Assembly (NCBI GenBank): GCA_002898015.1
Contig: BDTM01000035.1
Location: 42,401-106,400, forward strand
Reading direction: 5' to 3'
Source: a bacterium BMS3Bbin03
GTDB taxonomy: Bacteria > Zhuqueibacterota > JdFR-76 > BMS3Abin05
DNA: 64,000 nt
The number at the start of each line of letters is the position of its first letter. Position 1 is the stretch's first letter. Position numbers and translations under genes: made by a program. This document shows positions 34,101-53,853 of this stretch, piece by piece. Below the pieces are notes generated by a model, which ran no database searches, was not told the DNA's origin, and saw only the letters and a list, made by a program, of their open reading frames with translations.

Positions 34101-34163
34101 TTATACATAATTGAAACGCCGGACGGCAAGACGCAAATGGGTAAATTTGCGGTTATTAAATAG
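31107..34163 (+). CDS. Large secreted protein with a variant T9SS-type C-terminal beta-sandwich, candidate PorU-like from synteny
   Basis: About 1018 aa. The signal peptide is MNIKQKTLFILILGLAIGFWGLQFSSLAA. The C-terminus (VVPNPY...NLPNECVIRIFTLTGDKV...GLYLYIIETPDGKTQMGKFAVIK) resembles a Por CTD. It sits immediately upstream of the PorV-like gene. GGAGGT lies 6 nt before the ATG. Confidence 0.5.
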   Translation: MNIKQKTLFILILGLAIGFWGLQFSSLAADKKSAKNSYLKKPQRNIDFAAGILDAGKLQNAVFNDGRLATWAYRPSVPAAFYKGWSYIPDLSMIIGIPEDSSWTPKKLDPVTNKMISMGPTVSERFVASDWGPSAGANGKLHSGDATVGDVLTGTSIGAVPLMATSTIKKSWPKDDSGNRFWPGPWAVDPITGKVLKGHFTSDKDIFFSITDYDVNDQDVPYADSDNDTLQGYPIGLKLDISGYSYGRSYAEDILFFPMKIINTSKNNYHGMYVGFYMDADIPEYNLKTTVNDRMDWMSFIKDEYDPETDSTYHYNMAYIYDYRWGTGDFSGVSDPDAWKVYASMKLLDTPVNPKTGEQLGITDWHWFQWENRPGIIDSKRQELIQYKVISGDTSGLTPEESDAYFWPDPSGHLDPHFDSPEGIRTMYPDGLDCVFIMSSGPFDLAAGDTAVFSFAMIMGDNLKDLKFNARTAQFMYNLHYQGANPPIAPHVTAVPGKGRITLYWDRVAESSIDIMTGYQDFEGYRIYRTTSNPVNNEWGTEIRNDLGNVVEFVPVAQFDLADGIKGPDPQNPYFNLGNDTGLKHSWTDSTVLDGVTYWYAVAPYDRGVRPETEFNPDHWPLLAALETAKGTNPDATPNLVEVVPGPKPSTYVPPEIVLKPKPGTLGNGKIKASIIDPVAITGHTYEISFDDTTTRGKLLYNVWDATDQAWALKGADETRGQEGPFFDGLQLLIDNYQSIGLLADSSGWTTATGDSTDVTWTYSATGFSNPHNYEIRFTDEGDTSVFMPPLIRVPFEVWDVTVDQKLDFISFAASTDTTPEMKNTWTSGDAFMIREKVRGRVRSTFSFKLEGIPDTVITTIDTTINGADTTIVDTTITPKIPPKTGDVLHLITTKPFKRDRDVFVLETSHYKLEKRIQQKELKMVRVVPNPYIVSAEWDLNPYIRHIQFRNLPNECVIRIFTLTGDKVKTIHHKNATQGWEFWNMQTYNGQEIAYGLYLYIIETPDGKTQMGKFAVIK

Positions 34164-34200
34164 ACACAAAACTGCCATTAAATTTTTCGGAGGAAAATCA

Positions 34201-35264: not shown

Positions 35265-35407
35265 AAAGGAGGTGAGGTAGCCCAACCCATTTGAATGAAT
35301 CCTATCTTATGAAATCGCGAAAGGAGGTGATATAGCAGTTGTATCGGATGCTGAATTCGATGAAAAAGTTGCGATTTAATCAAAAGCATGAAGGAGGATT
35401 AAAATGA
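35265..35407 (+). promoter_or_regulatory. 5' leader with repeated AAAGGAGGTGA (perfect anti-Shine-Dalgarno complement) motifs and overlapping mini-uORFs
   Basis: AAAGGAGGTGA occurs at 35265-35275 and 35330-35340, and GAAGGAGGA at 35390. A 19-codon uORF (35348..35407, MLNSMKKLRFNQKHEGGLK) ends in ATGA, overlapping the main ATG at 35404. Confidence 0.5.
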
Positions 35408-37823: not shown

Positions 37824-40800
37824 ATGAAACGGATGAGACGAACAATTTATTTTTTGCTTGTTATGGGCATCGTGTTTTCAAGTGCCATTTTAAAAGCCGA
37901 GAGACCTGTAAAAAGCCAAAAATACCTGTTTGATGGAAGAGGGTACGTTCAACCTCACAAAGTGCTTTTAAAAGTAAAAACTTTTGCTTCCCTGAGGATG
38001 AAAGGGATTACTTTTTACAAGCCGGCATCTATAACCGGCCTGGCGTCGGTCGATCGGGTATTGGAAAAGTTTGAAGTAAAGTCCGTTAAAAAATATTTGC
38101 AGCACAAGCCCATTCCTGCCGGAATACCCGATGATATTGACCGGATTTATGAAGCACGATACGCCTCAGATGCACCGCCGTGGGAAGTGGCAAAGGAACT
38201 GGCAAAAGATCCGAATCTGGCGTATGCGGAACCCGTGCCGGTGTTTTTTTTAGAGGATACACCCAATGATCCCATGTATTCTCAACAGGCTCATCTGCCT
38301 CAAATTCATGCGCCCGAAGCCTGGGGTGTTCAAAAGGGCGACAGTTCTGTGGTTATTGCCATCGTCGATTGTGGCGTGGATTACAAGCATGAAGATTTAG
38401 CGGCAAATTCCTGGATTAATGAAAAGGAAAAAAATGGTCTGCCGGGAGTTGATGATGATGGAAACGGCTACGTGGACGATATTTATGGGTGGGATTTTGG
38501 CGAAAACGATCCGAATCCGATAAATCCCCCTCCGGATCCGCTCGGTTATTATGCCCACGGTACCCATGTGGCGGGATTGGCGGCGGCCGTCACAAACAAT
38601 GGTGTGGGGGTTTCGGGATCAAGCTGGAACTGCCGGTATATGGCGGTTAAAGCGGCTAAAGATGATGACCCGCGGTCCATTACGAATGGGTATCAGGGGA
38701 TCACGTATGCGGCAGATAACGGCGCCGATGTCATCAATCTGAGCTGGGGCGGCGGCGGTTATTACCAGGCCGGTCAGGATGTGGTGGAATATGCGTACAA
38801 CAAGGGATCCCTTGTTGTGGCTTCTGCCGGAAATGATCCAAATGATAAAGTGCATTACCCGTCCGGCTATCGCTATGCACTGAGCGTGGGTGTGGTTGAT
38901 TCTCACGATCGCAAACCGGCCTGGGGTACCTGGGGTCTTTCCGTAGATGTGATGGCGCCGGGCGTTCAGGATTTATCGACTCTGCCGGGAAACAAATACG
39001 GCAGGATGTCGGGCAGCTCCATGTCTGCCCCCGTGGCTGCCGGAGTGGTCGCTCTTGTGAAAGCCCGGCATCCGACTTGGTCTGTGCAGCGCATTATGAA
39101 ACAGGTTGCTTTTACCGCCGATAATATCGACGCCGAAAATCCGGGTGTCGAAGGATTGCTTGGCGGGGGAAGAATCGATGCCTATCGTGCTGTAACGGAG
39201 ACAAACCCCACACCTTCGCCCCCTAAAATAAAACTGATCAGCACGAAGATTTCCGATTCGGATTATGGGAACGGCAATGGGGTATTCGAACAGGGTGAAA
39301 CGATTACGATTGAACCTAAATTCCATAATTACTCCATGGGGACAGGAACAAATGTTCAGTTCTCTCTGAACACAGGTGACGATTCCAGCATTGTACTGAT
39401 TGCCAAATCAAGTACCGTCTCTTTTGTGGATGAGGAATCTGTTTTTGGTTTGCCGGAGAAGTTTTCTTTTTTAATAAAACAAAATGCGCAGTCTCACATG
39501 ACGCGATTTTTCATCGGATACACGACGAGCGAAGGATTCACGAGAGCGGATAGTTTCGATGTCTTGATCGGCAAGACTCCTGTCCTTATTGTTGATGACG
39601 ATGACGGCCAGAATAATGTTCAGGGGTTCTACATTTCGAGTTTAAAAACATTGGGCGTGAATTACGGAATCTGGACTCATGTAACGATGGGAACGCCTTC
39701 CAGCAGCTATCTTTCGAGTTTTCCGATTGTAATCTGGTCTTGCGAATGGGCCTTTCCGTCATTGGACTCCAGTGACCGGGCGGTATTACAAAAATATCTG
39801 GACGGCGGCGGGAACCTGTTTATTTCGGGGCAGGATATTGGTTGGGATTTGGTCGATCCCACAAGCGACGATCATAATGCTTCAAGCGAACAATTCTTTA
39901 AAGATTATCTGCATGCGGAATATGATGCAGATAATGCGAATGATAAGCGGGTCCGGGGTGTTTTCGGAGATCCCATCGGCAATGGCTTAAATTTTGAAAT
40001 TAACCAGCCGGGGCGGGATATTACAAATCAGTATCCCGATGTTCTGAGCCCTCTCCCCGGTGCGTTCCCCGTGTGGCAGTATGAGATAAATGGGGGTTAC
40101 GGAGGTGTGCGATTTGCCGGAGATTACCGGGTGGTTTATTTTGGTTTCGGTTTTGAAGCCATTGATGCGCCTACCGCCATCACCCAGGCGGGCGAGTATT
40201 CAAAAAATCGCGTGACCGTGATGCGAAGAGTGCTCGATTATCTTAATCCTATTCAGATGACGCCTTTAAAAGATTCGGAAAATATGGAAATTACATTTCC
40301 TGTGAATGCGATTCTGAAGGGTGATACGGTTGATCTGAAGGGAATGGTGCTTTATTGGAAATTTAAAGATGATTCCGTGTTCCGGGCCGTCCCAATGAGT
40401 CGTCAGGACCGTTTGTTCAAGGCCACGATCCCGGCCGCGCATCGCACAACGCATATTGATTATTATCTGGAAGTGGAGAATCAATATTATAAATGGAGTG
40501 CCCCGCCGGGAGCACCCCGTAACTATTATCAATTTTTTGTAGGACCGGACACGATTCCTCCCGTAATTGTTCATGAAAATCTTCCGGACATGTTTAATGG
40601 TGAAAAACCGTATTCCGTTCATGTCAAAGTGACCGATAATATCAGTCTGGATATGAATTCGGTTTTTGTTCACTATAAAGTCCGTTCCGTTGAGGACAGC
40701 CTTCAGCTCAGCCCCGGGGCGGAAACCGGTCTGTTTAAAGGGTCGATCCCGCCGGTGGCCGCTTATGGGGATACGCTTGTGTATTGGTTTACGGCAAAGG

Positions 40801-41639
40801 ATCGATCTTTGTTAAAAAACAGAGCCGTGTCTCAAAAATATCGTTTTCTTGTGGGATTGGACAACTTTGAACGGGGGTTATCCGGCTGGGTTGTTAACCC
40901 GCCCGGGTGGGGGCTGGACAATACGAATGCGCACTCCGGGGAATTTTCCATAAACGACAGTCCGGGTAAAAATTACGGTTTGAATGAAGTCACCATCATC
41001 CAAACGGATTTTGGATTCGATTTTTCCAGGGCCAAAAAAGCAATGCTGAGCCTGTGGACGAAATATTATCTTGAATTTGGTCATGATTTTGGTTATATTG
41101 AGGTTAGTCCGGATGGTGGGTCCACATGGAAACAATTGGGTGAAAAAATCGGCGGTGTTTCAACCCGGTGGAAAGAAATCACGCGTTCACTCACGCCTTA
41201 CACCGGAGCCGGTTTCGATCAGGTCAAACTGAGATTTCGAATGGTTTCGGACAATCATCAGGGTCCCCCCTTTATGGGCTGGTATATCGATGACGTTCAA
41301 GTCATAGAAGGTAAAGATCTAACAAGCGTCGCGTCAAACTCAAATGAAAATACGATCCCTAAAAGCTGGGAAGTATCTCAAAATTATCCAAATCCTTTTA
41401 ATCCTGAAACTCGAATTTCTATCCGGGTGCCCGGAAAACAGCTCGTAAGAATCGATGTCTATAATAGTATTGGGCAGCATGTGATCACCCTTGTCAAAAA
41501 AGTTTTACCTGCGGGGAATTATCAGTTTAATTGGAAAGGTGTGAACCCAAAAGGGGAAGAAATGCCGTCCGGACTCTATTTTTTAAGGGTCAGAGGTAAA
41601 AAATTTACAAAAATTCAAAAAATGGTTCTCATGCGCTAA
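37824..41639 (+). CDS. Subtilisin-like serine peptidase (S8) with large accessory domains and a T9SS C-terminal sorting domain
   Basis: 1271 aa. The catalytic triad is in context: Asp in VIAIVDCGVDYKHEDL, His in HGTHVAGLAA, Ser in GSSMSAPVAAGVVALV. The C-terminal CTD is NYPNPFNPETRISIRV...GLYFLRVRGKKFTKIQKMVLMR. Confidence 0.8.
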   Translation: MKRMRRTIYFLLVMGIVFSSAILKAERPVKSQKYLFDGRGYVQPHKVLLKVKTFASLRMKGITFYKPASITGLASVDRVLEKFEVKSVKKYLQHKPIPAGIPDDIDRIYEARYASDAPPWEVAKELAKDPNLAYAEPVPVFFLEDTPNDPMYSQQAHLPQIHAPEAWGVQKGDSSVVIAIVDCGVDYKHEDLAANSWINEKEKNGLPGVDDDGNGYVDDIYGWDFGENDPNPINPPPDPLGYYAHGTHVAGLAAAVTNNGVGVSGSSWNCRYMAVKAAKDDDPRSITNGYQGITYAADNGADVINLSWGGGGYYQAGQDVVEYAYNKGSLVVASAGNDPNDKVHYPSGYRYALSVGVVDSHDRKPAWGTWGLSVDVMAPGVQDLSTLPGNKYGRMSGSSMSAPVAAGVVALVKARHPTWSVQRIMKQVAFTADNIDAENPGVEGLLGGGRIDAYRAVTETNPTPSPPKIKLISTKISDSDYGNGNGVFEQGETITIEPKFHNYSMGTGTNVQFSLNTGDDSSIVLIAKSSTVSFVDEESVFGLPEKFSFLIKQNAQSHMTRFFIGYTTSEGFTRADSFDVLIGKTPVLIVDDDDGQNNVQGFYISSLKTLGVNYGIWTHVTMGTPSSSYLSSFPIVIWSCEWAFPSLDSSDRAVLQKYLDGGGNLFISGQDIGWDLVDPTSDDHNASSEQFFKDYLHAEYDADNANDKRVRGVFGDPIGNGLNFEINQPGRDITNQYPDVLSPLPGAFPVWQYEINGGYGGVRFAGDYRVVYFGFGFEAIDAPTAITQAGEYSKNRVTVMRRVLDYLNPIQMTPLKDSENMEITFPVNAILKGDTVDLKGMVLYWKFKDDSVFRAVPMSRQDRLFKATIPAAHRTTHIDYYLEVENQYYKWSAPPGAPRNYYQFFVGPDTIPPVIVHENLPDMFNGEKPYSVHVKVTDNISLDMNSVFVHYKVRSVEDSLQLSPGAETGLFKGSIPPVAAYGDTLVYWFTAKDRSLLKNRAVSQKYRFLVGLDNFERGLSGWVVNPPGWGLDNTNAHSGEFSINDSPGKNYGLNEVTIIQTDFGFDFSRAKKAMLSLWTKYYLEFGHDFGYIEVSPDGGSTWKQLGEKIGGVSTRWKEITRSLTPYTGAGFDQVKLRFRMVSDNHQGPPFMGWYIDDVQVIEGKDLTSVASNSNENTIPKSWEVSQNYPNPFNPETRISIRVPGKQLVRIDVYNSIGQHVITLVKKVLPAGNYQFNWKGVNPKGEEMPSGLYFLRVRGKKFTKIQKMVLMR

Positions 41640-41779: not shown

Positions 41780-41806
41780 TTTCAAACCAAAATGGAGGGT
41801 AACAAC

Positions 41807-44800
41807 ATGAGTAAAAGGTTGTTTTTATTTGCCACTGCGGTCATGTTGGCTGTATTTGGTGTGTTTGCGGTTTATGCTTCGAATAGTCCCCAAAAGTCGG
41901 TTGTGACAAGCAAGGTTAAAACCGTTCAGAAAAAGAAATTTCAAATGATTCGTTCTAACGGAACTGAAGCGGCCACGGCTGCCACACCATTATTCTTCGA
42001 TGATTTTGAAGGCACTAATCCCACATGGTGGCCCGATGCAAGCTGGAACAACACGGGTGATCCCGATCCCAATACCGGGCGCCAGTTTTCGAGAAAATCG
42101 ACGTGGGAATACACCGACTCATCGTATAGCAGCCCCACGCATAGCTGGCATAATTTGGTCAATGCCAATCAGGATCTGGACTTCTTGTTCTCACCTGTGT
42201 TTCACGTACCGGATTCGGTGACGATTGACGGGATTACCAGTGTACTAAAGGGCGGCTTTATCCAGTTTATGGCCAAAAAAGGCGGCAAAGGCATACTGAA
42301 TGTTTTTGTGAGCGCAGCCACTCCCCTTTGGGAAGTTGTATCCGATGATCCTCACAGCGGAGCCAATAATTATAATATGACTCAACCCAGTAACCCGATG
42401 CTGCATCAGTGGTTAATTTCTCCGAAAATTGATTTAACCGGAAAAACGGCGCCCAAACTGGATTTCTGGCACAATTATATTTCCGAAGACAAGTGGGATT
42501 ATCTGGCTGTAGATGTGTCTACCGACAGTTTTGCCACTTATACGAATCTGGCGTATTATACGGGCGAACAGGATGCCTATACAGAAGTAAATCTGGATTT
42601 GTCGGCTTTCGCCGGCGAGCAAATCTGGTTCCGTTTCCGCTACGTAGCCGATTATGGAGCAACAGCAGATAACGCGCATTGGGATGTGGATGACATTCTG
42701 GTTGCCGATGGCACCGATACGGTATTCTTTTCCGGTGCAGAAACTGAACCTGACCCCTTTACAAAGGCCGGGTTCATGGGCGGTACATCTGTTGCGGCAT
42801 TTAATACCGAACAGGATTGGGGCCTTGTCGATTTGGGTAATGTCCTTCTGAAAGGCGTTAAACCGGGTGTGGATGCGCGTTTGGCGTTTCAATGGACTAC
42901 TTCAGGAGACACCACGTTAACCGGCGCAGGCATCTATGTGGATGATGTCTCCGTTATTCCAATGGGAATGCAGCATGTCGATTTAGAAGCTGTTGGCGCC
43001 GCCGGCTTAAACAACGCTGCCCTTGGCAGACCGCTTAATGCAAAAGTTGTGGTTGCCAATGCGGGTCTCGATACGTTAAGCGGCCGTATTTCATGGCTGG
43101 CAAAAGTCTTTAAAAATGTAACTCCCGACAGCAGTGCTCTTGTCGGCAATATGGTTGGTTTTCAGCAAGTCAGTGGTTTCACTCCCGATTCAGTTATCTA
43201 TATTCCAACGCTGCAAAACACACGTTGGGTTCCAAAAGAACCGGGTGATTACACATTGGATGTGGATGTCATTTTCAATGGTGACACTTACATGTCCAAT
43301 AATAATGTGAAGGTAGATTTCACCGTACTCGGGCCTCCTTTTGCCATTCCGGTCTATCGTGAAGATTTCGAGCCCAGAGCCGGCCAGACGTCCTTAGCAG
43401 ATTTCGGGTGGACGGTTGACAATGGCGGCGGCGGTTCACACACTTGGGTTTATGATACCTGGATATATGGCTGGGGTCCGGTCATATCAGGATATTTTTA
43501 CGATTGGACGGCTGATTCTGCCAGTGCGGCACAGGCATTAGATGAAACGCTGACCAGTCCTGAAATTGACATTTCTAAGGTCAATTCGCATAATGTCCTG
43601 TTTTTGAACTGTTATATCTATTTCCGGCCCGGCCACGCCGGTCTGGGAGCCCCCTGGGGTGCGCAACCCAGCGATATGACGATTCAATATTCCGTAGACG
43701 GCGGCGCCTGGCAGCAAGCATTCTACTGGGCTGATAACGATACACTGCCCGGAGATTACAATCGTTGGCCGCAGACCCGGTTGGGTGTGCCGTATTATCA
43801 CAAAACCGACATGGTGCTTCCCGGAGCAGCCGGTGGAAAAACACTCCAGATCCGCGTCAACTTCACTTCTACGAACTCGTATCTCTTTGGCATCAACTTC
43901 GATGAGGTCATCATTTACCAGGGTCTGATTAATCCATTGTTAGGCAAGGTGAAAGATGTGCCCAACGATAATGGTAAACAAGTCCGCTTGAATTGGATGA
44001 GATCCTGGAACGATCTGATGACCGCTAAGGGTGAAGGTTTGCAGAATCCGGTGACGCATTACAATGTCTGGAGAGGCTTTGGAATCCCGGGCGCGGGAGA
44101 AGCCAGACATGTGACTTCAACGGAAGCCATGCTGCGTGGTGCTGCCGGCATGAAAATTGGTGACAAAGTCATCGTCGATGACAACAACATGCTGTGGGAA
44201 CTGGTGGGCTCTGTTCCGGCAATGGGATGGAAATTCTATTCCTACGTCGCTCCGACCCTTGAGGATTCTGTCAGCACCTCATTCATGGTTTCTGCTCATC
44301 TGACCAATCCGATGGTATTCGATTACTCAAATATCAGTGCAGGCATATCCATCGATAATCTGGCGCCGCACATACCGGGTGGACTGACGGGTGGTCAGGT
44401 AGATTCCCATGTAAAAATCGTCTGGCAGCCGGTAACCGATAATGACCTGATGTTCTATACGGTTTATCGCAGCCAGGGAAATGGTAATTTGGTGCGATTG
44501 ACAAGAACAACGAGCACCTCTTATGTAGATGCGAATGTCACTCTGGAGAAGACTTATCATTATGCCATTACCGCCACCGATTTTGGGTGGAATGAGAGTC
44601 AAAAATCGGAAAAACTGTCGGTTTCCGTGACCAGTGTGAATGAAAAAGTTTCTAATGCAATCCCGACGGATTACGCATTGAATCAAAATTATCCGAATCC
44701 ATTCAATCCGACCACGGAAATTCGCTACGCGATTCCAAAGAGTGCAAATGTGACCATTTCAATTTATAACGTATTTGGTCAGAAAGTACGCACGCTGGTA

Positions 44801-44944
44801 ACCGGATACAAGTCTGCCGGCTATTATGTGGCAAACTGGAATGGCCGTTCCGATAATGGTCGCGAAGTCTCTTCCGGTATTTATTTCTATGAAATTCATG
44901 CCGGTACATTTACGGCCACAAAGAAGATGACTTTAATGCGGTAA
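41807..44944 (+). CDS. Secreted protein with an FN3 domain and a T9SS C-terminal sorting domain
   Basis: There is a GGAGGG site 6 nt before ATG 41807, and a signal peptide. The FN3-like module is VKIVWQPVTDNDLMFYTVYRSQGNGNLVRLTRTTSTSYVD. The C-terminal CTD is NYPNPFNPTTEIRYAI...GIYFYEIHAGTFTATKKMTLMR. Confidence 0.65.
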   Translation: MSKRLFLFATAVMLAVFGVFAVYASNSPQKSVVTSKVKTVQKKKFQMIRSNGTEAATAATPLFFDDFEGTNPTWWPDASWNNTGDPDPNTGRQFSRKSTWEYTDSSYSSPTHSWHNLVNANQDLDFLFSPVFHVPDSVTIDGITSVLKGGFIQFMAKKGGKGILNVFVSAATPLWEVVSDDPHSGANNYNMTQPSNPMLHQWLISPKIDLTGKTAPKLDFWHNYISEDKWDYLAVDVSTDSFATYTNLAYYTGEQDAYTEVNLDLSAFAGEQIWFRFRYVADYGATADNAHWDVDDILVADGTDTVFFSGAETEPDPFTKAGFMGGTSVAAFNTEQDWGLVDLGNVLLKGVKPGVDARLAFQWTTSGDTTLTGAGIYVDDVSVIPMGMQHVDLEAVGAAGLNNAALGRPLNAKVVVANAGLDTLSGRISWLAKVFKNVTPDSSALVGNMVGFQQVSGFTPDSVIYIPTLQNTRWVPKEPGDYTLDVDVIFNGDTYMSNNNVKVDFTVLGPPFAIPVYREDFEPRAGQTSLADFGWTVDNGGGGSHTWVYDTWIYGWGPVISGYFYDWTADSASAAQALDETLTSPEIDISKVNSHNVLFLNCYIYFRPGHAGLGAPWGAQPSDMTIQYSVDGGAWQQAFYWADNDTLPGDYNRWPQTRLGVPYYHKTDMVLPGAAGGKTLQIRVNFTSTNSYLFGINFDEVIIYQGLINPLLGKVKDVPNDNGKQVRLNWMRSWNDLMTAKGEGLQNPVTHYNVWRGFGIPGAGEARHVTSTEAMLRGAAGMKIGDKVIVDDNNMLWELVGSVPAMGWKFYSYVAPTLEDSVSTSFMVSAHLTNPMVFDYSNISAGISIDNLAPHIPGGLTGGQVDSHVKIVWQPVTDNDLMFYTVYRSQGNGNLVRLTRTTSTSYVDANVTLEKTYHYAITATDFGWNESQKSEKLSVSVTSVNEKVSNAIPTDYALNQNYPNPFNPTTEIRYAIPKSANVTISIYNVFGQKVRTLVTGYKSAGYYVANWNGRSDNGREVSSGIYFYEIHAGTFTATKKMTLMR

Positions 44945-45718: not shown

Positions 45719-47392
45719 TCATTTTAGCTCTAACCAGATCGGATTTGAAAAAGAAGCTTTACCGGTGTCTGTGGCAGCTTCCAGCCTCAGATAAACTTCT
45801 TTCCGGGAGAGTTCAATTTTTCTAAAAATTCGGCTTCTGAAATTCGATTCTTTTCTTTCTTGGAATCTTAATTGTGTCTCCTGAATCTTTGCGCCGGATC
45901 TGTCAATTTTTCCAAGGAGCAATTTTATTTTGTGAAGCTTTCCAAATTCCGGCGTGGATTTAAAATCGGCCTGAATTTCAAAAGTACCTCCTGAAATTGT
46001 AGATCCCATTTCTGCGATTTCGCGGTTTTCATTTTGGGCCGTAAAATTCAGGGCCGGCCCGTCCGTGATGAAACAACGGCCTCTTTTCAGAGCGTTCAGG
46101 ATCGCTTCAAACGAGAAAGAATCCGCAAATACGCCGGTTCGCGTTTTGCCTAAAATTTGGCTGTTCTTTTCATGCATCTTGAAAAACGGAAAACGAACCT
46201 GGCGGTAGCGGTTAAAATTTCCATGCGCATCCGTTCCGGCGTAAATATATTTTTTGTATCCCCTGGCCAGACTCCATTTCCACAGGCGGAGCCCGTCTAT
46301 AAAACCCTGGTCGATAGCACCGTTGAGAATTTGCAAGCCTGACAGATTTTTATGAAGAATATCCTGCATTTCCCATTTTCCGCGATTAATGAGAATGCTC
46401 TCCAATTTTGGGACGGGCACCGCGGGGTGTGCGGCGATTGCGGCGGCTGTATCCGGAATTTTTTGCAGAAGATCCGGAATGCTGCTTTCCGAATAAAATT
46501 TAAACCACTTTTCAGCCCCATCGCCGCTTCCTTTGTGAAACCGGGGATCGTTGAGAATCAGGAAATGCACGTTTCGGTTACGCCTGTTTCTGACGGTGAC
46601 CTCTTCCCCGGAAATCATGATCGGCTTTTTTCCGTTTGACGGTTTGTTCAATTGAGAAAGTTCTTTCCGGAATCGTTTCCATTTTGTAAGTTTGGGATCA
46701 TTCTTGATATAATTGTCGATGAAATCATCCAGATCGTAGGAGTGGTCTGTTACGGCCACAAAGGAGAGCCCGACCGCTTCGGCCGCCTCCTGAATGGCGG
46801 GTAAAGGCGCACCGAATTCAACCTGATCGCTTGTGTAATTGGAGTGGGTATGCAAATCACCGTAAAACAAACCCGGCAGGCAGGGAAGTTTGGACGAGCT
46901 GATTTTGACGCACAGCGGCGCGTGTGACGTCCCCGTATAATTGTCATTTTGAAAATTGTAAATCTTTTTTTTATGTCGAATCGTAATGGTAACATTCAGT
47001 TCGATCGTCCCTGTGTTCATGCCGGAAGGGTCGAGCCAAAACTGTCTGTGCCAGAAAGGGCTGTCCAGTTTAAGCGAATTGTCAAAAAGAATTTTGTGCG
47101 AAAGTCCTTCTCCGTTTAATTTGAAATCAACCCGAATAGTCCGAAGCTCAATCGGGAAAAGGTGGGCATCTTTAATAATGACGAGCACGGGCAGTTTTTG
47201 TCCGGGTTCGAGCCGGTGGGGGGCATCCGCCAGAATTTCCGGAAAAAGGTGCTTCAGGCGGCTGTAAATTCCCTTGAACTGATAGTGAATTTCGGCATAA
47301 AAGAAACCCGCCGAAAACAAATAACACGTCCATTGGAACAAATTCCCGGAATGATTTAAATAAAAAGAGTGTTCCCAGATCATAAATGACAT
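45719..47392 (-). CDS. PHP-domain metal-dependent phosphoesterase with an extra C-terminal domain
   Basis: 557 aa. The PHP motifs are GDLHTHSNYTSD, VAVTDHSYD and GTDAHG. Confidence 0.6.
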   Translation of the reverse strand: MSFMIWEHSFYLNHSGNLFQWTCYLFSAGFFYAEIHYQFKGIYSRLKHLFPEILADAPHRLEPGQKLPVLVIIKDAHLFPIELRTIRVDFKLNGEGLSHKILFDNSLKLDSPFWHRQFWLDPSGMNTGTIELNVTITIRHKKKIYNFQNDNYTGTSHAPLCVKISSSKLPCLPGLFYGDLHTHSNYTSDQVEFGAPLPAIQEAAEAVGLSFVAVTDHSYDLDDFIDNYIKNDPKLTKWKRFRKELSQLNKPSNGKKPIMISGEEVTVRNRRNRNVHFLILNDPRFHKGSGDGAEKWFKFYSESSIPDLLQKIPDTAAAIAAHPAVPVPKLESILINRGKWEMQDILHKNLSGLQILNGAIDQGFIDGLRLWKWSLARGYKKYIYAGTDAHGNFNRYRQVRFPFFKMHEKNSQILGKTRTGVFADSFSFEAILNALKRGRCFITDGPALNFTAQNENREIAEMGSTISGGTFEIQADFKSTPEFGKLHKIKLLLGKIDRSGAKIQETQLRFQERKESNFRSRIFRKIELSRKEVYLRLEAATDTGKASFSNPIWLELK

Positions 47393-47453
47393 TCCATTTT
47401 TTAGTTTCTTTGCGGTTTAACCGGCTCTGCCCAAAAATCAAAAAGTGAACGGG

Positions 47454-48467
47454 TCATTCTGTCCGAATCGTCCGTTGAAATGTTTTCTCGAATTCATATT
47501 TCAGTTTAGGCCACACACTCAAGTAAAAGTACGGATCCCTTTTGTAGAGGAACGAGGGATCAAAATAGCAATTGATTGTGCAGTTTTGACAAAAAGAGTA
47601 GCGTCCCTGATTTTTCAGAGCTTCTCTGCGTTGTTTTGAATTCAGCGCTTCTGGCAATGATGTCCCGATCGGAATGGTCTGGCTGCGATGGTGAAAACAG
47701 GGGAGAAGAAGCTCATTTTGGGGGGAAATAACGACGGTGGATGAAACCCCCCGGCACCGCGGATTTCCCCGCTGATTGCCTCCCGAGCGTATGAAATGGT
47801 GATAAGCACGATTCACATAAACATAAGACGCATTTTGAAATATTTCAATGTATTTTAGGGCGCTTTCCGAAATACCGGTATTCCCGAAGTAGCTGAACAC
47901 AGGATTGGTGACTAACAGGAGTTTTCGTTTTTGTGCAAATGTTACAAGCTGCGGCATTTCTTTGGCATTTTGAGCGGTAACCGTAAAAAGTAAATCCGGT
48001 TTTTCTCCCAGAGAGAGCGCCAAATCGATGCTTTCCATCAACCGCTCAAAAACAGGAACGCCGCGAAGGGTGTTCAGGCGTTTCGGATTTAAGGAATCCA
48101 ATGAAAAGTGCAGAATATCAACCAGGCCTTTTAGCTGCTGTGCACGGCCCGGGTAAAGAATCGTATTGGTGGTGACGCTGGTGATAAAGCCGAGGCGTTT
48201 GGCTTCTTTGAGCATTTGAGGCAGGTCTTTGTTCAGCAGGGGTTCACCGCCGGTAAAATCAACAAAAATGACGCCCATCCGGCGAAGATCCTGTAGATTT
48301 CGAATGACCTCTTTCAGCCCGGCATCCTGAGAGTGTTTGTAATCTTCCCGCTGCCAGAAATCACAGAAAACGCAGCGCGCATTGCAGCGGTACGTGACGT
48401 AATAATTGCAGAGGATGGGACGGTTTTTAAACACATTGGTGAAGTTCTTCAGGTTGTTTAAAATCAT
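47454..48467 (-). CDS. Radical SAM enzyme
   Basis: 337 aa. The CxxxCxxC motif near the N-terminus is YRCNARCVFCDFW. A glycine-rich SAM motif (DFTGGEPLL) is also present. Its stop overlaps the start of the downstream GT2 gene (ATGA-type coupling at 48464-48467). Confidence 0.75.
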   Translation of the reverse strand: MILNNLKNFTNVFKNRPILCNYYVTYRCNARCVFCDFWQREDYKHSQDAGLKEVIRNLQDLRRMGVIFVDFTGGEPLLNKDLPQMLKEAKRLGFITSVTTNTILYPGRAQQLKGLVDILHFSLDSLNPKRLNTLRGVPVFERLMESIDLALSLGEKPDLLFTVTAQNAKEMPQLVTFAQKRKLLLVTNPVFSYFGNTGISESALKYIEIFQNASYVYVNRAYHHFIRSGGNQRGNPRCRGVSSTVVISPQNELLLPCFHHRSQTIPIGTSLPEALNSKQRREALKNQGRYSFCQNCTINCYFDPSFLYKRDPYFYLSVWPKLKYEFEKTFQRTIRTE

Positions 48468-49594
48468 GAGCGAATGGTGTTTCCCTTGTAATGGTCTTTT
48501 TTCCAGTGAATGGAATTGGAAAAAGCGAAAAAAGTGAACACGGTTGTGTACAGGAAATAAAAAATTTCAAAAAACGGGAAATAAGACAAAAGGCTCAATT
48601 TTCGATTGGGAATCAAGGTACGAAAGAGTAAGACCAAATCCGTTATGAAAATCAGAATAATTCCAAATGCGGCGGTGGCGTACGTCGAACTGAAAAAAAG
48701 AGAAACCGGAAGAAGCAGATGATTTAAAAAACTTACGCTCATAAGCAGAAGCCCGAAAAAACGGACACTTTTTCCGCCGACGACCCATCGTTTTCGCTGT
48801 TGGAAAAAACCTTTCAGGGTGGGTTCGGGGAAGCTGGTCACCGTTGTATCCGGATGGATTGGAAAGCGAATTTCCCAATCGGTGCGCTTGCAGACAATCC
48901 GGAGGAATGCAAAATCTTCCGTCACGCTAAAGCCGATGTGCGGATATCCCCCCACCTGGAAGTAAACCCGCCTTCGCAGCGCCATGTTGTTTCCAATGCA
49001 ACTGGATGGTTTTCCAAGACCTGTGGCTCCGGAGGCGGCGGTTAAAAGATACGCCCAATCCAGCGCCTGCACGCCCTCCCACAGCGTGTGCCTCGTGTGC
49101 CGCGCCGCAAGGTACGTCTGGCCGCACACCACGCCGACGTCGTCATTGAAATAAAGAAGCATGCTTTCGATCCAGCGTTCGTTCAAAATACAATCCGCAT
49201 CCGTTAAAAAGACAAATTCACCCGTGGCAATTTCCATTGCCTTGTGAATGGCATTCTCTTTTCCGGACATGTAATTCTCAATTTTATTGATGTGAATGGC
49301 CTGAATGTAATCGTGCTGACGCGCCATTTCATCGAAAATAGAACCCGTTCGATCAGAGGAGCGGTCATTCGCAAGAATAACCTGCAGGCGGCCTTTTGGA
49401 AAAGAAAGCCTCAAAAGCGACTGCAAAAAGACCGGCAGATTTTGTTCCTCATCTCTTGCAGCGAGAATCACAGTAACCTTTGCTTTCGGATTTAAGGAAT
49501 AGGTCTTCTGTTTTAAGAAAGTGCCGATCAGCAGCAGAACACCCATACCGATGTACAAAAATACGAGGATTTCCAGAAAGTCTTTTGAGATCAT
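48464..49594 (-). CDS. Membrane-integrated family 2 glycosyltransferase (GT2)
   Basis: There are N-terminal transmembrane helices, a GT-A core with DxD (LTDADCIL) and a QxxRW-like motif (QQRKRWVVG), and C-terminal transmembrane helices. Confidence 0.75.
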   Translation of the reverse strand: MISKDFLEILVFLYIGMGVLLLIGTFLKQKTYSLNPKAKVTVILAARDEEQNLPVFLQSLLRLSFPKGRLQVILANDRSSDRTGSIFDEMARQHDYIQAIHINKIENYMSGKENAIHKAMEIATGEFVFLTDADCILNERWIESMLLYFNDDVGVVCGQTYLAARHTRHTLWEGVQALDWAYLLTAASGATGLGKPSSCIGNNMALRRRVYFQVGGYPHIGFSVTEDFAFLRIVCKRTDWEIRFPIHPDTTVTSFPEPTLKGFFQQRKRWVVGGKSVRFFGLLLMSVSFLNHLLLPVSLFFSSTYATAAFGIILIFITDLVLLFRTLIPNRKLSLLSYFPFFEIFYFLYTTVFTFFAFSNSIHWKKDHYKGNTIRS

Positions 49595-50262
49595 TGGGCG
49601 TTCTCCCGCAGCTTTTTTAGGCGAAACAGTTCAGAAAGGGGGCTGAAGGAAAAGCCTCTGTCCAGAAGATGCCTGAGAATGGCGGGCAAAGCTTGAATCG
49701 TCTGCGAAACATTTTTCCCTGAATCGTGAAATAAAACCACCGATCCCGGTTTCACGGAAGTCAGTACATTCCGAACGATGTCTTGGGCAGATGTTTTTTC
49801 CTTGTAATCTCTGGAATCCACATTCCACAGCACCATTTGAAGGTTCTGCGCTTCCGATATTTTTTTCATGGCCGGACGAAAGCGTCCGTAAGGCGGCCGA
49901 AAAAGGAGGGGCTGTAAACCACAGGCTTGATGAATGAGTCCATTGGTCCGTTGAATTTCTTCCGAAATAAACGATTTTTTGCGAAGCCATAAAGGCACAT
50001 GACTGAAGCCGTGGTTCCCGATTGAATGGCCTTCCCGTGTGCATTGGCTGAGAAGTCCGGGCGCCGCAGGGATTTTTTCGCCTTTGATAAAAAACGAGGC
50101 TTTTGCACGAAAATCTTTTAAAATCGACAAGACTTGCGGCGTAGAATGGACATCCGGACCATCGTCGAACGTGAGAAAGACAATGCGTGCCTCTGTTGGG
50201 ACCCGAAACAAAACCCAAGGGAAAATTTTTTCTGCCGGGGAGAAAAAAACGGAATCATTCAT
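49591..50262 (-). CDS. Polysaccharide deacetylase (CE4, NodB domain)
   Basis: The motifs TFDDGPD and HSIGNHGFSH match CE4 motifs 1 and 2. Confidence 0.8.
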   Translation of the reverse strand: MNDSVFFSPAEKIFPWVLFRVPTEARIVFLTFDDGPDVHSTPQVLSILKDFRAKASFFIKGEKIPAAPGLLSQCTREGHSIGNHGFSHVPLWLRKKSFISEEIQRTNGLIHQACGLQPLLFRPPYGRFRPAMKKISEAQNLQMVLWNVDSRDYKEKTSAQDIVRNVLTSVKPGSVVLFHDSGKNVSQTIQALPAILRHLLDRGFSFSPLSELFRLKKLRENAQ

Positions 50263-50281
50263 TTATAATACCCTGCCTCAT

Positions 50282-51415
50282 CTATCCGCGATTGAACCTG
50301 CCCTTCCATTCGTAATTTCCATTTAATCCCTTTAGACTAACCCATAAAATATAAGGAATCTGGAAAAATTGGGCAAGAAGAAAATATTTCAGTAAATCAA
50401 TTCTTCCGGTAAATCCGGCGCCTTTGTAAACGATTTGAAAATCGACACCCCATTTTACGGAAAAAGCAATCAAAATATAAAACCAGGGAAATCCGAGCAC
50501 CAGCCAGACCGGCCAGAGAAAGAGAGCCAAATAAAATAAATAGACCGAAATTAGAAAAAAAACGATCGATTTATTCAGGTAGTGGGGACTATTACTGGCC
50601 CAGCGCGTTCGTTGATTGAGAAATGCCTTTAAATTTTTCACGGGCCGGGTAAAATTATTCGTATTTTTTTCAACCGCAAATCGAATTTTCCAGTCGGTCA
50701 GATTGTGAATTTTCTGCACAAGCAAGTTGTCATCTCCGGACGGGATATGGTCGATGTCATGAAAGCCGCTCACCTCTTCGAAAACGCACCGGCGGTAGCT
50801 TAAATTGGCGCCGTTGCTGATGACGGGCTTGCCTTTGCCGATAGCGCCGGCGCCGGCGGTGACCAGCCCTAAAAATTCCAGGGATTGGATTTTGTGGAAG
50901 AGTGTTTTTTCAAATTTGGGGTGAATAAGAATGTACCCGGAAACCGCACCCACATCCGGTTTGTAGTGCCTGGCAAGTCCTGTCAGCCAGGTGGGCTGAA
51001 CCGTACAGTCCGCATCGACGGTGGCGATGATTTCACTTTCTGTGTGCTCGATTCCATATTGAAGAGCTGCCTTTTTATATGCCTTCTGCGCGTGATTTTC
51101 CCGGTATTGAAACAATTGAACACGGCCGGGGAAACGTTTCTCAAATGTCCGGACAATCTCTGCCGTCTGATCGGTTGAATGATCGTCGATGACGGCAATT
51201 TTATATAATTCGGGCGGATAGGTTTGATTAAGAACAGAATTTAGACAAATTGTAATATTGGCTTCTTCATTTCTGGCGGGAATCAAAATCTGAAAAAACG
51301 GCTTTGCTTCGGATGTGCCCGGCTTGAGGCGCAGCAGCCCGCTGTAATAACCGCTGATTTTGATGAGATAAAAAAGGATCAGGAACAAAAGCAGTCCTGC
51401 AAAAAAAATAATCAT
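50282..51415 (-). CDS. Membrane-integrated family 2 glycosyltransferase (GT2)
   Basis: It has an N-terminal transmembrane helix, IATVDADCTV as the DxD motif, QRTRWASN as a QxxRW-like motif, and a C-terminal transmembrane bundle. Confidence 0.75.
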   Translation of the reverse strand: MIIFFAGLLLFLILFYLIKISGYYSGLLRLKPGTSEAKPFFQILIPARNEEANITICLNSVLNQTYPPELYKIAVIDDHSTDQTAEIVRTFEKRFPGRVQLFQYRENHAQKAYKKAALQYGIEHTESEIIATVDADCTVQPTWLTGLARHYKPDVGAVSGYILIHPKFEKTLFHKIQSLEFLGLVTAGAGAIGKGKPVISNGANLSYRRCVFEEVSGFHDIDHIPSGDDNLLVQKIHNLTDWKIRFAVEKNTNNFTRPVKNLKAFLNQRTRWASNSPHYLNKSIVFFLISVYLFYLALFLWPVWLVLGFPWFYILIAFSVKWGVDFQIVYKGAGFTGRIDLLKYFLLAQFFQIPYILWVSLKGLNGNYEWKGRFNRG

Positions 51416-52356
51416 GACCTTCCTCTCAAGGGATGTTTTTCTTTAATCAAAAAGTAAAGCCCCGCCAGACCCGGAATTAATAAATTGATTACGAATAAAA
51501 GAATGGGGCCGTTAAATGCCGCCGCAGAAGAGACGGAAAATTTTTTGAAAAAAAATACCGAAGCCCCTTCCCGAATACCAAGATCCCCGATTGAAATCGG
51601 CAGGATTGTTTTTATAAAAAATACCGTCGGAATTGTTATGGCACCGGCCTGAACGGGCACCTTCTCAAAGGCATTTACTAAAATATAAAATTGAAATGAA
51701 AAAATCAAGTAAGCGGCAAATGAAAGAAGAAAAACTTTCCGGCCTCTTTGATTATTCAGTATTTCCAGACCATAAATTAAACGGTGAAGGGGATGATCCT
51801 GTGGAAAATGGCCTCCGATCTTGAGTACCCATGCCTTAAAAAGTTCGGGAAATATGGGAGAAATGAGAAGAATTGTAAAAAACAGTTCAAGAATAATTTT
51901 TATCGTGCCGTTTAACGTGGCGATAAACGGAAATTCGGAAAGAAATAGTAGGGCTGTCCACCCGCCAATGCCGATTACGATGAGCATCGTGTAAATTTTA
52001 TCAACCGCCACAACCCCCATGGCGATGACCCAGTCGGTTTTTTTGACGAAAAAAGCTCTGGAATATTCGCCGATCCGGCCCGGAGTCGTAAATCCAATTG
52101 CAAGACTGATCAGAAATTCACGCATGGCTTCTGAGAAAGTGGACGCCGGACGAATCCACCTCACCATGTAATGCCATTTGTAAATTTGAAGATACAGATT
52201 CACCGGCATCAGGATAAAAGCCAGAATGATGAGCGACAAATCCGCCGTAAGAAAGGCCTGACCAATTTGTGCCGGCCTGATTGTCCAGATGAGTGCGCCT
52301 AAAATGAGAAGCGCCAGTGCGATTTTAATGCCCCGAAAAGCCGTTTTACTGATCAT
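51412..52356 (-). CDS. Polytopic membrane protein, flippase-like (PF03706/HpnL-like, lysyl-PG-synthase transmembrane-region family)
   Basis: 314 aa with about 8 transmembrane helices. The topology and partner genes match the UPF0104/PF03706 family, which commonly pairs with GT2 enzymes. The start and stop overlap both neighbouring genes. Confidence 0.5.
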   Translation of the reverse strand: MISKTAFRGIKIALALLILGALIWTIRPAQIGQAFLTADLSLIILAFILMPVNLYLQIYKWHYMVRWIRPASTFSEAMREFLISLAIGFTTPGRIGEYSRAFFVKKTDWVIAMGVVAVDKIYTMLIVIGIGGWTALLFLSEFPFIATLNGTIKIILELFFTILLISPIFPELFKAWVLKIGGHFPQDHPLHRLIYGLEILNNQRGRKVFLLSFAAYLIFSFQFYILVNAFEKVPVQAGAITIPTVFFIKTILPISIGDLGIREGASVFFFKKFSVSSAAAFNGPILLFVINLLIPGLAGLYFLIKEKHPLRGRS

Positions 52357-53470
52357 GAGATTCCACAGATGAATTTTCTTTCCAGTGAATGGGTAAAAAG
52401 AAGCTTAAAATGCCGATAATCCAGACTTCCGCCGGGTAAAAATATTCCCAGAAAAACATCATGTTCATCGGGAGATCAAATTTAAATTTTCGTTGTGCTG
52501 TTGTAAAAATAGTAAAATCAATCAAAAGCTTTGTTACAAACAAACCGGCAATGAGCCAAGAGTGCTTTCCAAAAAACAAAAGAACCGGAAGAAGAAGTAA
52601 AATAGTGTGACTCAGATAAAACAGGCCGTACAGAATTTTAGAAGGGAAATTGTAATATTTCCCGGCAGAAAAATGGCGAATGCGCTGGCTGAAAAAATGC
52701 TTCCATGACATTGGCGGACTGCTGACGACAGTACTTTTGGGGGTATCTGCAAAGGCCAGTTTGTAAGACGTTTTCTTCCGCACCAGGTGCAAAAACAGAT
52801 CGTCGTCACCGGAAATGGAGTGCGCAATCGGAGTGAAGCCGTTCACTTTTTCGTACACGGATTTTCGGTAGGCCAGATTTCTGCCCGTGGCCGTCATCGG
52901 AATTTGCCAGGCAAGTCCTGCTTTGGCAACCAGGTTATCGAACACGCTTTCGATTGCCGTAAACTTTTGAAGAAAGCCGTTCTTTTGTGCCTGAAGCGGG
53001 GCGAATCCGACCACAATGCCCGTTTCACGCGTGAAGCAGGGGAGGGTTGCTTCGATCCAGGTGGCAGCGGGGCGGCAATCCGCATCGGTGAAAAGTAAAA
53101 TTTCACTCCGGCTCTTTTCGATTCCCAGGCTGAGAGCAAATTTTTTGGCGGGCATGTTCAGGGATGTCTCTTCGATTCGAATGACGCGCAGATTGGGCAA
53201 TTTTTGCTGCCACTCATTTAAAATTTTCGGTGAATCATCCGACGACCGGTCATCGACAATTATAATTTCAAATTTGTTTTGCGGAAATGTTTGGCTTTGT
53301 AAAGATTCCAGTAAAGCCGGCAGATTGGCGGCTTCGTTGTGTGCCGCGATGATAACCGAAATAAAATGCGGAAGCCGGTCTGTTTTTTCGAATGAATAAA
53401 ACAGACCTTTTATGAGAAATAAAATCCAGATCAAATAAATGAGGAAAATTGTCAGAATAAAGATAATCAT
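52346..53470 (-). CDS. Membrane-integrated family 2 glycosyltransferase (GT2)
   Basis: It has an N-terminal transmembrane helix, FTDADCRP as the DxD motif, SQRIRH as a QxxRW-like motif, and C-terminal transmembrane helices. It is the first gene of the minus-strand operon. Confidence 0.75.
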   Translation of the reverse strand: MIIFILTIFLIYLIWILFLIKGLFYSFEKTDRLPHFISVIIAAHNEAANLPALLESLQSQTFPQNKFEIIIVDDRSSDDSPKILNEWQQKLPNLRVIRIEETSLNMPAKKFALSLGIEKSRSEILLFTDADCRPAATWIEATLPCFTRETGIVVGFAPLQAQKNGFLQKFTAIESVFDNLVAKAGLAWQIPMTATGRNLAYRKSVYEKVNGFTPIAHSISGDDDLFLHLVRKKTSYKLAFADTPKSTVVSSPPMSWKHFFSQRIRHFSAGKYYNFPSKILYGLFYLSHTILLLLPVLLFFGKHSWLIAGLFVTKLLIDFTIFTTAQRKFKFDLPMNMMFFWEYFYPAEVWIIGILSFFLPIHWKENSSVESHDQ

Positions 53471-53540: not shown

Positions 53541-53606
53541 TTTAACAATAAAAAATGGGCTTCGCAGTTCTTCTCTGAGTATACCCAAGCATCCTGAGCG
53601 AAGCCC
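53541..53606 (-). terminator. Candidate intrinsic terminator on the minus strand (9-bp GGGCTTCGC/GCGAAGCCC stem, large loop, then a U-run)
   Basis: On the minus strand the hairpin is followed by ATTTTTTATTGTT. It lies just downstream of the small ORF at 53650..53853. Confidence 0.4.
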
Positions 53607-53649: not shown

Positions 53650-53853
53650 TTAAAATTCGAAATAAAATGTGCCGTCTTTATTGATACCCATTTTACCCGT
53701 AAAGAGAATAAAATTCGGGTTTTGTTCTTCCTTATATTGCTGAGCTTTTTTTATATTTCGTGTGCATTTAATTTTATAACCCTTGTTTTTCATTTTGTTT
53801 GAAAGTGATTGACCGAATCCCTGATTACTGCCCAAAATAAGTATTTTCTTCAT
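53650..53853 (-). CDS. 67-aa ORF resembling only the N-terminal Rossmann segment of a short-chain dehydrogenase (possible gene remnant)
   Basis: MKKILILGSNQGFGQSL carries the SDR glycine motif (GxxxGxG), but the ORF stops after about 65 residues. It has its own downstream terminator. Confidence 0.3.
   Translation of the reverse strand: MKKILILGSNQGFGQSLSNKMKNKGYKIKCTRNIKKAQQYKEEQNPNFILFTGKMGINKDGTFYFEF

Follow-up and report, generated by a model that had tools for sequence, protein, structure and literature searches.

The 64,000-nucleotide stretch of bacterium BMS3Bbin03 analyzed here (contig BDTM01000035.1 of assembly GCA_002898015.1, positions 42,401 to 106,400 of the forward strand; hereafter the window) carries a conserved operon that most likely builds a glycolipid or a lipid-linked short oligosaccharide with a free-amine sugar, stepwise at the cytoplasmic face of the membrane, a reading to which we give a probability of roughly 45%. 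Seven co-directional minus-strand genes run from 53470 to 45719; according to the open reading frame (ORF) listing and to Pfam and NCBIfam comparisons, they encode in order a GT2-family glycosyltransferase (GT2a), a PF03706 flippase-like protein, GT2b, a CE4 deacetylase, GT2c, a radical S-adenosylmethionine (SAM) enzyme and a PHP protein (Table 1). The junctions from GT2a to PHP measure -11, -4, +19, -4, -4 and +61 nt, the 11-nt overlap being that of the PF03706 gene start with the GT2a stop, and the operon is flanked by an endonuclease III gene (divergent) and a lipoprotein-like gene (convergent). An earlier reading of this DNA from its letters (the original prediction) had described a six-gene unit with a PHP phosphoesterase next to it. 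Its six domain calls, the minus strand, the gene order and four start and stop codon overlaps (52346-52356, 51412-51415, 49591-49594 and 48464-48467) all hold; the unit, however, comprises seven genes, and the PHP gene, rather than merely adjoining the operon, forms with GT2c its most conserved part.

The operon is a real, conserved unit. The identical seven-gene order occurs in a 'Deferribacteres' metagenome-assembled genome (MAG; L007, where L labels denote homologous loci and percentages given below for their proteins are identities to the window proteins), and a six-gene form, GT2a–PF03706–GT2b–CE4–GT2c–PHP without radical SAM, is found in L012 and L013, both from Ignavibacteriales, and in numerous metagenome contigs; the arrangement is not a chance juxtaposition. 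Carriers belong to KSB1, Calditrichota, Latescibacteria, Zhuqueibacterota and Ignavibacteriales, which are large and for the most part uncultured groups, and to 'Bacteroidota' MAGs, counting homologues of at least 50% identity for the radical SAM enzyme and at least 40% for the PHP protein. These homologues bear generic names, namely 'radical SAM protein', 'hypothetical protein' and 'CehA/McbA family metallohydrolase', and the transferases are likewise annotated simply as 'glycosyltransferase'. A radical SAM protein identical to that of the window is encoded by 'bacterium BMS3Abin05' (GCA_002898095.1), a MAG of marine hydrothermal origin to which the NCBI taxonomy assigns no class. A metagenome scan with the PHP alignment yielded 560 confirmed loci, among which the 80 retained by BLASTP against the window proteins were annotated; a scan of genome contigs with the radical SAM query, for which the patterns are highly specific, returned one locus only.

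The variation among these loci reveals how the operon is assembled. In the 61 annotated metagenome loci with at least 1.3 kb of upstream sequence, the nearest same-strand gene upstream of PHP is GT2c in 44, radical SAM in 6 and CE4 in 5, with none in the other 6; the six-gene order given above is the most frequent full architecture, present in 8 of the 24 loci whose upstream sequence extends to 6.8 kb or more, and radical SAM genes occur in 9 of the 80 annotated loci. GT2c and PHP stand alone as a minimal pair in L015 and L085. Elsewhere the three-gene run GT2c–radical SAM–PHP is preceded by a DUF3108 gene (L009 and L014) or by a longer series of five GT2s, a methyltransferase, PF03706, Wzi and DUF3108 (L008), and the Latescibacteria locus L010 has GT2b–CE4–GT2c–radical SAM with no PHP gene adjoining. 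Wzi is embedded in four variant loci in all, and other variants carry the DUF3108 protein, which has a signal peptide. In L057, L068 and L070, and in the identically arranged L072, a GT28-C/MurG-like GT-B enzyme stands where GT2c would be expected, between CE4 and PHP, apparently as a non-orthologous replacement. Because of these architectures, and because the three GT2s form three positional orthogroups, the operon can be divided into the sub-modules [GT2a–PF03706], [GT2b–CE4] and [GT2c–(radical SAM)–PHP], of which the last is the core, with radical SAM as an optional insert.

Each of the three GT2s displays one N-terminal and about three C-terminal hydrophobic segments in a transmembrane (TM) scan, together with the motifs DAD, GDD/TED and Q(R/K)xR(W/H). 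The last reads QRIRH in GT2a, QRTRW in GT2b and QRKRW, accompanied by TED, in GT2c, and such signature variants distinguish the orthogroups, with QRxRH marking the GT2a type and QRKRW the GT2c type. In an all-against-all GT2 comparison the window enzymes proved mutually 26-31% identical, with 26-29% for GT2b and 26-30% for GT2c against the other two. Positional orthologues were found for GT2a in L007_1467 (48%) and L012_5068 (39%) and for GT2b in L007_3522 (66%), L010_6963 (40%) and L012_7184 (36%), and GT2c is 32-63% identical to the GT2 beside radical SAM/PHP in all other loci compared (L007-L010 and L012-L015). Since these are distant paralogues that each have positional orthologues in other phyla, three distinct steps can be argued; the same cross-phylum orthologues rule out that the three GT2s are recent redundant duplicates. 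All three exceed the Pfam cut-off for GT21 (PF13506, the ceramide-glucosyltransferase type), and Pgt, the transferase of the PlcP–Pgt operons considered at the end of this article, is likewise a GT21-type enzyme. In NCBIfam, the best match of GT2b and GT2c is PgaC_IcaA (TIGR03937; 56.0, 75.5 and 94.7 bits for GT2a, GT2b and GT2c against a cut-off of 422), and the MftF model, with a cut-off of 280, scores 56-77 bits, ranking first for GT2a at 77 bits and second for GT2b at 72; NodC (43.5 bits for GT2b and 24.5 for GT2c against 550), CelA and EpsD models also match. From these comparisons we judge the GT2s to be of the PgaC/NodC/GT21 architectural type and to be three ancient and non-redundant paralogues.

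The PF03706 protein covers 302 of the 302 positions of its profile, has about eight hydrophobic segments, and scores 40.2 bits against the 43.2 required by the flippase-like domain model TIGR00374; its gene directly follows GT2a also in L007, L012, L013 and many metagenome loci. The CE4 gene, for its part, always comes directly after GT2b. Its product is assigned to CE4 (PF01522, cut-off 23.1) and retains intact the catalytic motifs TFDDG, H-x3-H (HGFSH), RPPYG and LFHD, which are conserved in the orthologues. Its eight NCBIfam matches are all to CE4 families, but scores of 154.5 bits for PdaB (cut-off 237) and 134.5 for NodB (cut-off 240) place it in neither of these two, and the closest sequences in the PDB are chitin and peptidoglycan N-acetylglucosamine (GlcNAc) deacetylases, at 133 bits. 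The protein has no signal peptide and no TM segment, and its orthologues, at 206-210 aa, leave no room for a signal peptide; deacetylation is thus predicted to be cytoplasmic, as for NodB and ArnD and unlike PgaB, IcaB and PgdA. As the radical SAM and PHP proteins lack signal peptides too, the chemistry of the operon as a whole appears to be cytoplasmic.

Relatives of the PHP protein form more than 1,000 clusters. The protein scores above the threshold of the CehA/McbA metallohydrolase model (NF038032) and has the PHP fold; all the canonical PHP metal ligands (His/Asp/Glu) are invariant in 27 homologues. In its structural model (predicted local distance difference test, pLDDT, 86) a short N-terminal helix is followed by an Ig-like sandwich, the PHP barrel and a second sandwich at the C-terminus, and the TM scan shows no strong segment. 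A sequence search with the protein against the PDB gave no match. It can be described as a PHP-fold protein, a predicted trinuclear-metal hydrolase flanked by two beta-sandwich domains, and is the core partner of GT2c.

The radical SAM enzyme is a lineage-specific, optional accessory, inserted between GT2c and PHP, and wherever it is present it adjoins GT2c. Invariant in 33 homologues are the cysteines of the CX3CX2C motif (C28/C32/C35) as well as C238, C257, C293, C296 and C300. The clade is compact, with 195 clusters at E<=1e-30 in a search of 1.84 billion representatives. TIGR03961, the PTO1314 family, is its best NCBIfam match (118 bits against 306, E 5e-34), and although the protein is not a member, the alignment spans its full length, pairing residues 10-310 with positions 15-312 of the 332-position profile; next in rank are MoaA, viperin and SPASM maturases. 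In the PDB the best sequence match is BlsE, at 45.5 bits, and BlsE (7vob) is also the best Foldseek neighbor of the AlphaFold model (pLDDT 92; E 6e-14, TM-score 0.67/0.69, 20% identity), with SuiB, MoaA, anSME, viperin, DesII, AbmM, PqqE and SkfB as further neighbors. Of these, BlsE, DesII, viperin, MoaA and AbmM are enzymes whose substrates are sugars or nucleotides. The C-terminal cysteine region aligns with the Pfam SPASM segment of P0310, a 31%-identical relative; PF13186 itself gave no match at E<=0.01. More distant relatives (~26% identity), whose names are uninformative, include fusions of a GT2 with two radical SAM domains, at least one of them with SPASM (P0339, P0347 and P0370, 1141-1251 aa; P0363, 1011 aa). 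Architectures include both GT2–radical SAM–radical SAM and radical SAM–GT2, one of them from a Candidatus Omnitrophota MAG, and they provide independent 'Rosetta-stone' support for a functional partnership between GT2 and radical SAM enzymes.

Taken together, cytoplasmic soluble enzymes, membrane-embedded transferases and a flippase-like protein suggest a lipid-anchored sugar that is assembled on the inner face and then translocated. The PHP protein may act as a peripheral phosphoesterase that provides GT2c with its lipid partner or completes that partner; it might, for instance, take off a phosphate or a phospho-head group and so expose a hydroxyl, which GT2c would then glycosylate. GT2b would add an N-acetyl-hexosamine, to be de-N-acetylated by CE4 on the cytoplasmic face; GT2a would add another sugar; and the PF03706 protein would carry the completed lipid across to the outer leaflet, where it would be displayed in the envelope. 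As the radical SAM enzyme goes with GT2c rather than with CE4, it would be expected to act on the GT2c sugar or its nucleotide donor; candidate reactions start with C-H abstraction and lead to oxidation, decarboxylation, epimerization or ring rearrangement, in the manner of BlsE. Characterized members of the GT28-C/MurG-like family act on lipid acceptors, and the replacement of GT2c by such an enzyme fits a lipid acceptor here; the DUF3108 proteins and the outer-membrane protein Wzi of the variant loci suggest an outer-envelope destination.

This interpretation must be made cautiously, as several points speak against it. Every chemical step is read from superfamily membership. PF03706 proteins owe the label 'flippase-like' to an analogy with MprF. 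At its N-terminus the PHP protein has a short hydrophobic stretch, modeled with low confidence, which makes any membrane association conjectural; among the enzymes of the PHP fold are nucleases, histidinol phosphatases and carbamate hydrolases, and we know of no lipid phosphoesterase of this fold. The PHP gene stands alone in 4 of the 24 long loci. Finally, PgaC/IcaA is the highest-scoring model for both GT2b (75 bits) and GT2c (95 bits), and the QxxRW/TED motifs also occur in processive polysaccharide synthases. One may also postulate a more specific and rather unlikely scenario, in which the operon defines a new class of envelope glycolipid of the Fibrobacterota–Chlorobiota–Bacteroidota (FCB) group: a PHP lipid phosphoesterase would be paired with a GT21-like transferase, and in Calditrichota/KSB1-type lineages, the present hydrothermal organism among them, the radical SAM enzyme would make a non-canonical head group. 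The first sugar might then be, for instance, carbocyclic, deoxy or decarboxylated, giving a bacterial counterpart of calditol or of the bacteriohopanetetrol cyclitol ether that is made by unrelated enzymes.

The scores against PgaC_IcaA, together with those of NodC, CelA and EpsD, raise the possibility, which we regard as serious although less likely, that the product is instead a synthase-dependent exo- or oligosaccharide. A processive PgaC/NodC-like GT2 would then make a beta-linked N-acetylhexosamine (HexNAc) chain that CE4 partly de-N-acetylates, as in poly-N-acetylglucosamine (PNAG), chitosan or Nod-like molecules. The PF03706 protein, together with the TM helices at the C-termini of the GT2s, would export the chain, and the PHP and radical SAM enzymes would trim or decorate it. 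The DAD, TED/GDD and QxxRW motifs, the NodC-like TM layout, the proximity of the CE4 protein to chitin and peptidoglycan GlcNAc deacetylases and to NodB, and the presence of the capsule-anchoring Wzi in four variant loci are all in keeping with such a product. However, all scores lie 4-6 fold under the family cut-offs, the CE4 protein is predicted to be cytoplasmic where PgaB and IcaB are not, and three distant paralogues of ~375 aa fit successive single transfers better than one synthase; moreover, the minimal form of the locus is GT2c plus a phosphoesterase, and a NodA-like acyltransferase is absent from the Pfam and locus annotation. Nor does the operon or its vicinity contain a PgaA, PgaD, PilZ, TPR-porin or c-di-GMP component; this is not a standard PNAG or cellulose locus, and the earlier view that it would be unusual for a simple PNAG-type locus holds. 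A GT2 accompanied by a cytoplasmic CE4 deacetylase and a flippase also recalls the logic of ArnC/ArnD/ArnEF, and the operon could accordingly be read as a polyprenyl-phosphate amino-sugar pathway of the ArnC/ArnD or LgmA/LgmC type, though we consider this quite unlikely. HexNAc would be placed on undecaprenyl phosphate, deacetylated by CE4 and flipped by the PF03706 protein; an unlinked GT-C would transfer the amino sugar to lipid A or an envelope polymer, and PHP would recycle polyprenyl (pyro)phosphate, a carrier-lipid role that suits a phosphoesterase. The ArnC model NF007986 matches all three GT2s weakly (19-30 bits), as does the ArnC structure 9hwj for GT2c, and the Ignavibacteriales cluster lies near genes for lipopolysaccharide (LPS)-core heptosyltransferases and Wzy_C/O-antigen ligases. 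ArnC-type enzymes, however, have neither QxxRW nor an N-terminal TM helix, and the matches cover only the N-terminal Rossmann-like part; no GT-C (ArnT-like) gene occurs in the loci examined, and three paralogous GT2s would be left unexplained.

The MftF matches of GT2a and GT2b, a score of 39.9 bits for the mycofactocin radical SAM model, and the presence of SuiB, PqqE, SkfB and anSME among the structural neighbors could point to a glycosylated peptide or small molecule of mycofactocin type, in which a SPASM radical SAM enzyme (MftC-like) and a GT2 (MftF-like) would modify a soluble scaffold. We hold this to be highly improbable: with genes that overlap or adjoin, and a gap of 61 nt that could not hold one, there is no precursor-peptide ORF; the radical SAM core begins at about residue 20 and no RRE/PqqD domain is present; most clusters have no radical SAM gene; all the GT2s are polytopic membrane proteins; and the scores are far below cut-off. 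The original prediction had favored a glycolipid or amino-sugar tailoring operon resembling the hopanoid module. Read in this way, the operon would tailor the head group of a hopanoid, or of an analogous polycyclic or polyol lipid, with equivalents of HpnI (glycosyltransferase), HpnK (deacetylase) and HpnJ (radical SAM ring contraction) acting in turn, along with HpnL. The logic of the enzyme classes is indeed identical, HpnI and HpnB models match the GT2s weakly, and HpnL is likewise a PF03706/AglD-type protein; every Hpn family test in the NCBIfam comparison nevertheless went the other way, and the hopanoid assignment now seems very unlikely. The HpnI model (TIGR03472) scores 29.4, 44.4 and 60.1 bits on GT2a, GT2b and GT2c against a cut-off of 310, and neither HpnK nor HpnL (TIGR03476) has a match at E<=0.01. 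HpnK has a YdjC-type fold, and the deacetylase here is a CE4 enzyme; HpnJ is a class-B radical SAM protein of about 470 aa with an N-terminal B12-binding domain, for which Pfam gives no match at E<=0.01 in the radical SAM protein of the window. HpnJ is also missing from the best 25 of its 61 NCBIfam radical SAM matches, all of which are of SPASM, MoaA or viperin type; the enzyme groups with SPASM/PqqE/anSME types, an outcome that the prediction itself had named as counting against it. The radical SAM gene is, besides, optional and uncoupled from CE4: it occurs without CE4 in at least five loci (L008, L009, L014, L062 and L065), which leaves an HpnK→HpnJ-style dependence, deacetylation and then rearrangement, unsupported. 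No squalene-hopene cyclase (shc) or hpn gene was found within the 64-kb window or in the flanks of 10 related loci. A published survey reports this cyclase to be absent or extremely rare in Bacteroidota, and the HpnL domain is found mostly in Pseudomonadota, near shc.

Table 1 Features of the operon and its surroundings in the window, and features of other loci mentioned in the text (other loci are named in the first column).
Feature	Coordinates	Strand	Length	Evidence or description
GT2a	52346-53470	-	374 aa	PF00535 88.5 bits; PF13506 (GT21) 45.1 bits
PF03706 LPG_synthase_TM/flippase-like	51412-52356	-	314 aa	87.7 bits vs cut-off 33.4
GT2b	50282-51415	-	377 aa	PF00535 89 bits; PF13506 37.1 bits
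CE4 (NodB-homology) deacetylase	49591-50262	-	223 aa	PF01522 106.8 bits
GT2c	48464-49594	-	376 aa	PF13641 82.7 bits; PF13506 53.2 bits
Radical SAM	47454-48467	-	337 aa	PF04055 82 bits; also PF13353
PHP-like protein	45719-47392	-	557 aa	NF038032 CehA/McbA metallohydrolase 96.5 bits vs cut-off 80
ORF upstream of GT2a	53650-53853	-	67 aa	MKKILILGSNQGFGQ...
Terminator-like hairpin	53557-53606	-		9-bp GC-rich stem then T-run, between 67-aa ORF and GT2a
GT-B in GT2c slot, L057	2839-3900			Glyco_tran_28_C; MJ1255/VC2487- and MurG-like, below cut-offs
GT-B in GT2c slot, L068	8901-9980			Glyco_tran_28_C; MJ1255/VC2487- and MurG-like, below cut-offs
GT-B in GT2c slot, L070	8895-9995			Glyco_tran_28_C; MJ1255/VC2487- and MurG-like, below cut-offs
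Type IX secretion run	12062-14677, 34111-35223, 35404-37542, 37824-41639, 41792-44944			PorV-like and cargo genes
Branched-chain polyamine synthase	15106-16188			BpsA_C 189 bits
GlnD-like (PII uridylyltransferase)	16239-18863			Convergent with GlnE-like gene
GlnE-like (glutamine synthetase adenylyltransferase)	18866-21880			Convergent with GlnD-like gene
DUF4258/MqsA-antitoxin-like pair, L014 (Zhuqueibacterota)	11288-11828			Between radical SAM and PHP genes

Upstream of GT2a, the hairpin listed in Table 1 folds at -26 kcal/mol, weakly better than shuffled sequences (z = -1.9), and is probably the 5' boundary of the operon. The 67-aa ORF that precedes it has no Pfam match and is annotated as a gene in the source assemblies. 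A generic sigma-70 and terminator scan found promoter- or terminator-like sites to be no more frequent than in shuffled sequence, FCB promoters being outside the models of that scan.

Several neighboring features deserve mention in their own right. Immediately downstream of the operon lies a type IX secretion system (T9SS) run, comprising a PorV-like gene and genes for four large Por_Secre_tail/CHU_C cargo proteins, among them an LTD-domain protein, a subtilase and an InhA-like MAM protease; these are hallmarks of the FCB group. In L009 a PorV gene is found just upstream of DUF3108–GT2c–radical SAM–PHP. Anionic LPS (A-LPS) anchors T9SS cargo in Porphyromonas, and the glycoconjugate of the operon might conceivably be linked to such anchoring. 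The window also encodes a branched-chain polyamine synthase, usually a marker of (hyper)thermophiles and as such in keeping with the hydrothermal source of the MAG, as well as convergent GlnD-like and GlnE-like genes that are unrelated to the operon. Among the homologous loci, that of L014 has a DUF4258/MqsA-antitoxin-like pair between its radical SAM and PHP genes, and the DUF4258 gene type is present beside the Latescibacteria locus L010 as well. The loci L012, L013 and L015 share an upstream neighborhood of PRK-like kinase, M16 peptidase, aminotransferase and NADH dehydrogenase genes, with an M50 site-2 protease and BNR/sortilin-like proteins downstream; Wzy_C and GT9 heptosyltransferase genes are near in L012 and L013.

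Envelope glycoconjugate operons are familiar as a kind of system, and the individual domains come from known superfamilies, but the conserved combination is not familiar: it matches no curated family or paper that we found, and the original expectation of an undescribed system agrees with the lack of any description of the cluster in the searchable literature. This applies in particular to the PHP hydrolase family, paired as it is with a transferase of GT21-like type, and to the clade of twitch-like radical SAM enzymes that are coupled to GT2. Knowledge of the product would extend what is known of cell-envelope chemistry in the FCB superphylum and might yield a new intact-polar-lipid biomarker for sediment and hydrothermal settings; it would also give a function to a PHP-fold family without a solved or characterized member, and define the reaction of a radical SAM clade that is recurrently coupled or fused to GT2. 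Should the product prove to be an ordinary exopolysaccharide, the interest would be modest.

Compared with known systems, the operon resembles the HpnI/HpnK/HpnJ(+HpnL) module of Burkholderia and Alphaproteobacteria in its classes of chemistry, which there comprise HexNAc transfer to a lipid by a membrane GT2, de-N-acetylation and a radical SAM step, along with a membrane protein of the PF03706/AglD type; it differs in having three GT2s rather than one, a PHP core partner, a CE4 deacetylase and an optional, SPASM/twitch-like radical SAM enzyme. With PNAG and Nod systems it has in common a membrane GT2 with QxxRW and a CE4 enzyme, but its proteins fall outside the PgaC/IcaA and NodC/NodB families. 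The radical SAM enzyme is closest in NCBIfam to the PTO1314 family, which is archaeal and uncharacterized (model type hypoth_equivalog) and for which we found no paper that mentions it. BlsE, a cytosylglucuronate decarboxylase, belongs to the same sugar-modifying twitch/SPASM group as DesII, BtrN and AbmM. It shares with the window enzyme a partial TIM barrel and a Cys-rich C-terminal domain; the window enzyme, by contrast, has five invariant C-terminal cysteines and a membrane GT2 partner, whereas BlsE works in a nucleoside-antibiotic pathway. The two-gene logic of the minimal GT2c–PHP pair, a phosphoesterase beside a lipid glycosyltransferase, is also that of the PlcP–Agt and PlcP–Pgt operons of Phaeobacter, SAR11 and Agrobacterium/Mesorhizobium, in which the phosphoesterase makes diacylglycerol and the neighboring transferase glycosylates it under phosphate stress (PMC4796936). 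PlcP, however, is a calcineurin-like metallophosphoesterase and Agt a GT4 enzyme, and there is no CE4, PF03706 or radical SAM component; with its PHP fold, the operon described here is not a member of that module, and the analogy is one of function. According to a recent review, the glycosyltransferase of the calditol route needs a dephosphorylated lipid, implying an unidentified phosphatase, and a radical SAM enzyme is then proposed to remodel the sugar (PMC13459092). This archaeal route, with the calditol synthase Cds of Sulfolobus acting on tetraether lipids, presents, when compared by its published description, the same triad as GT2c–radical SAM–PHP.

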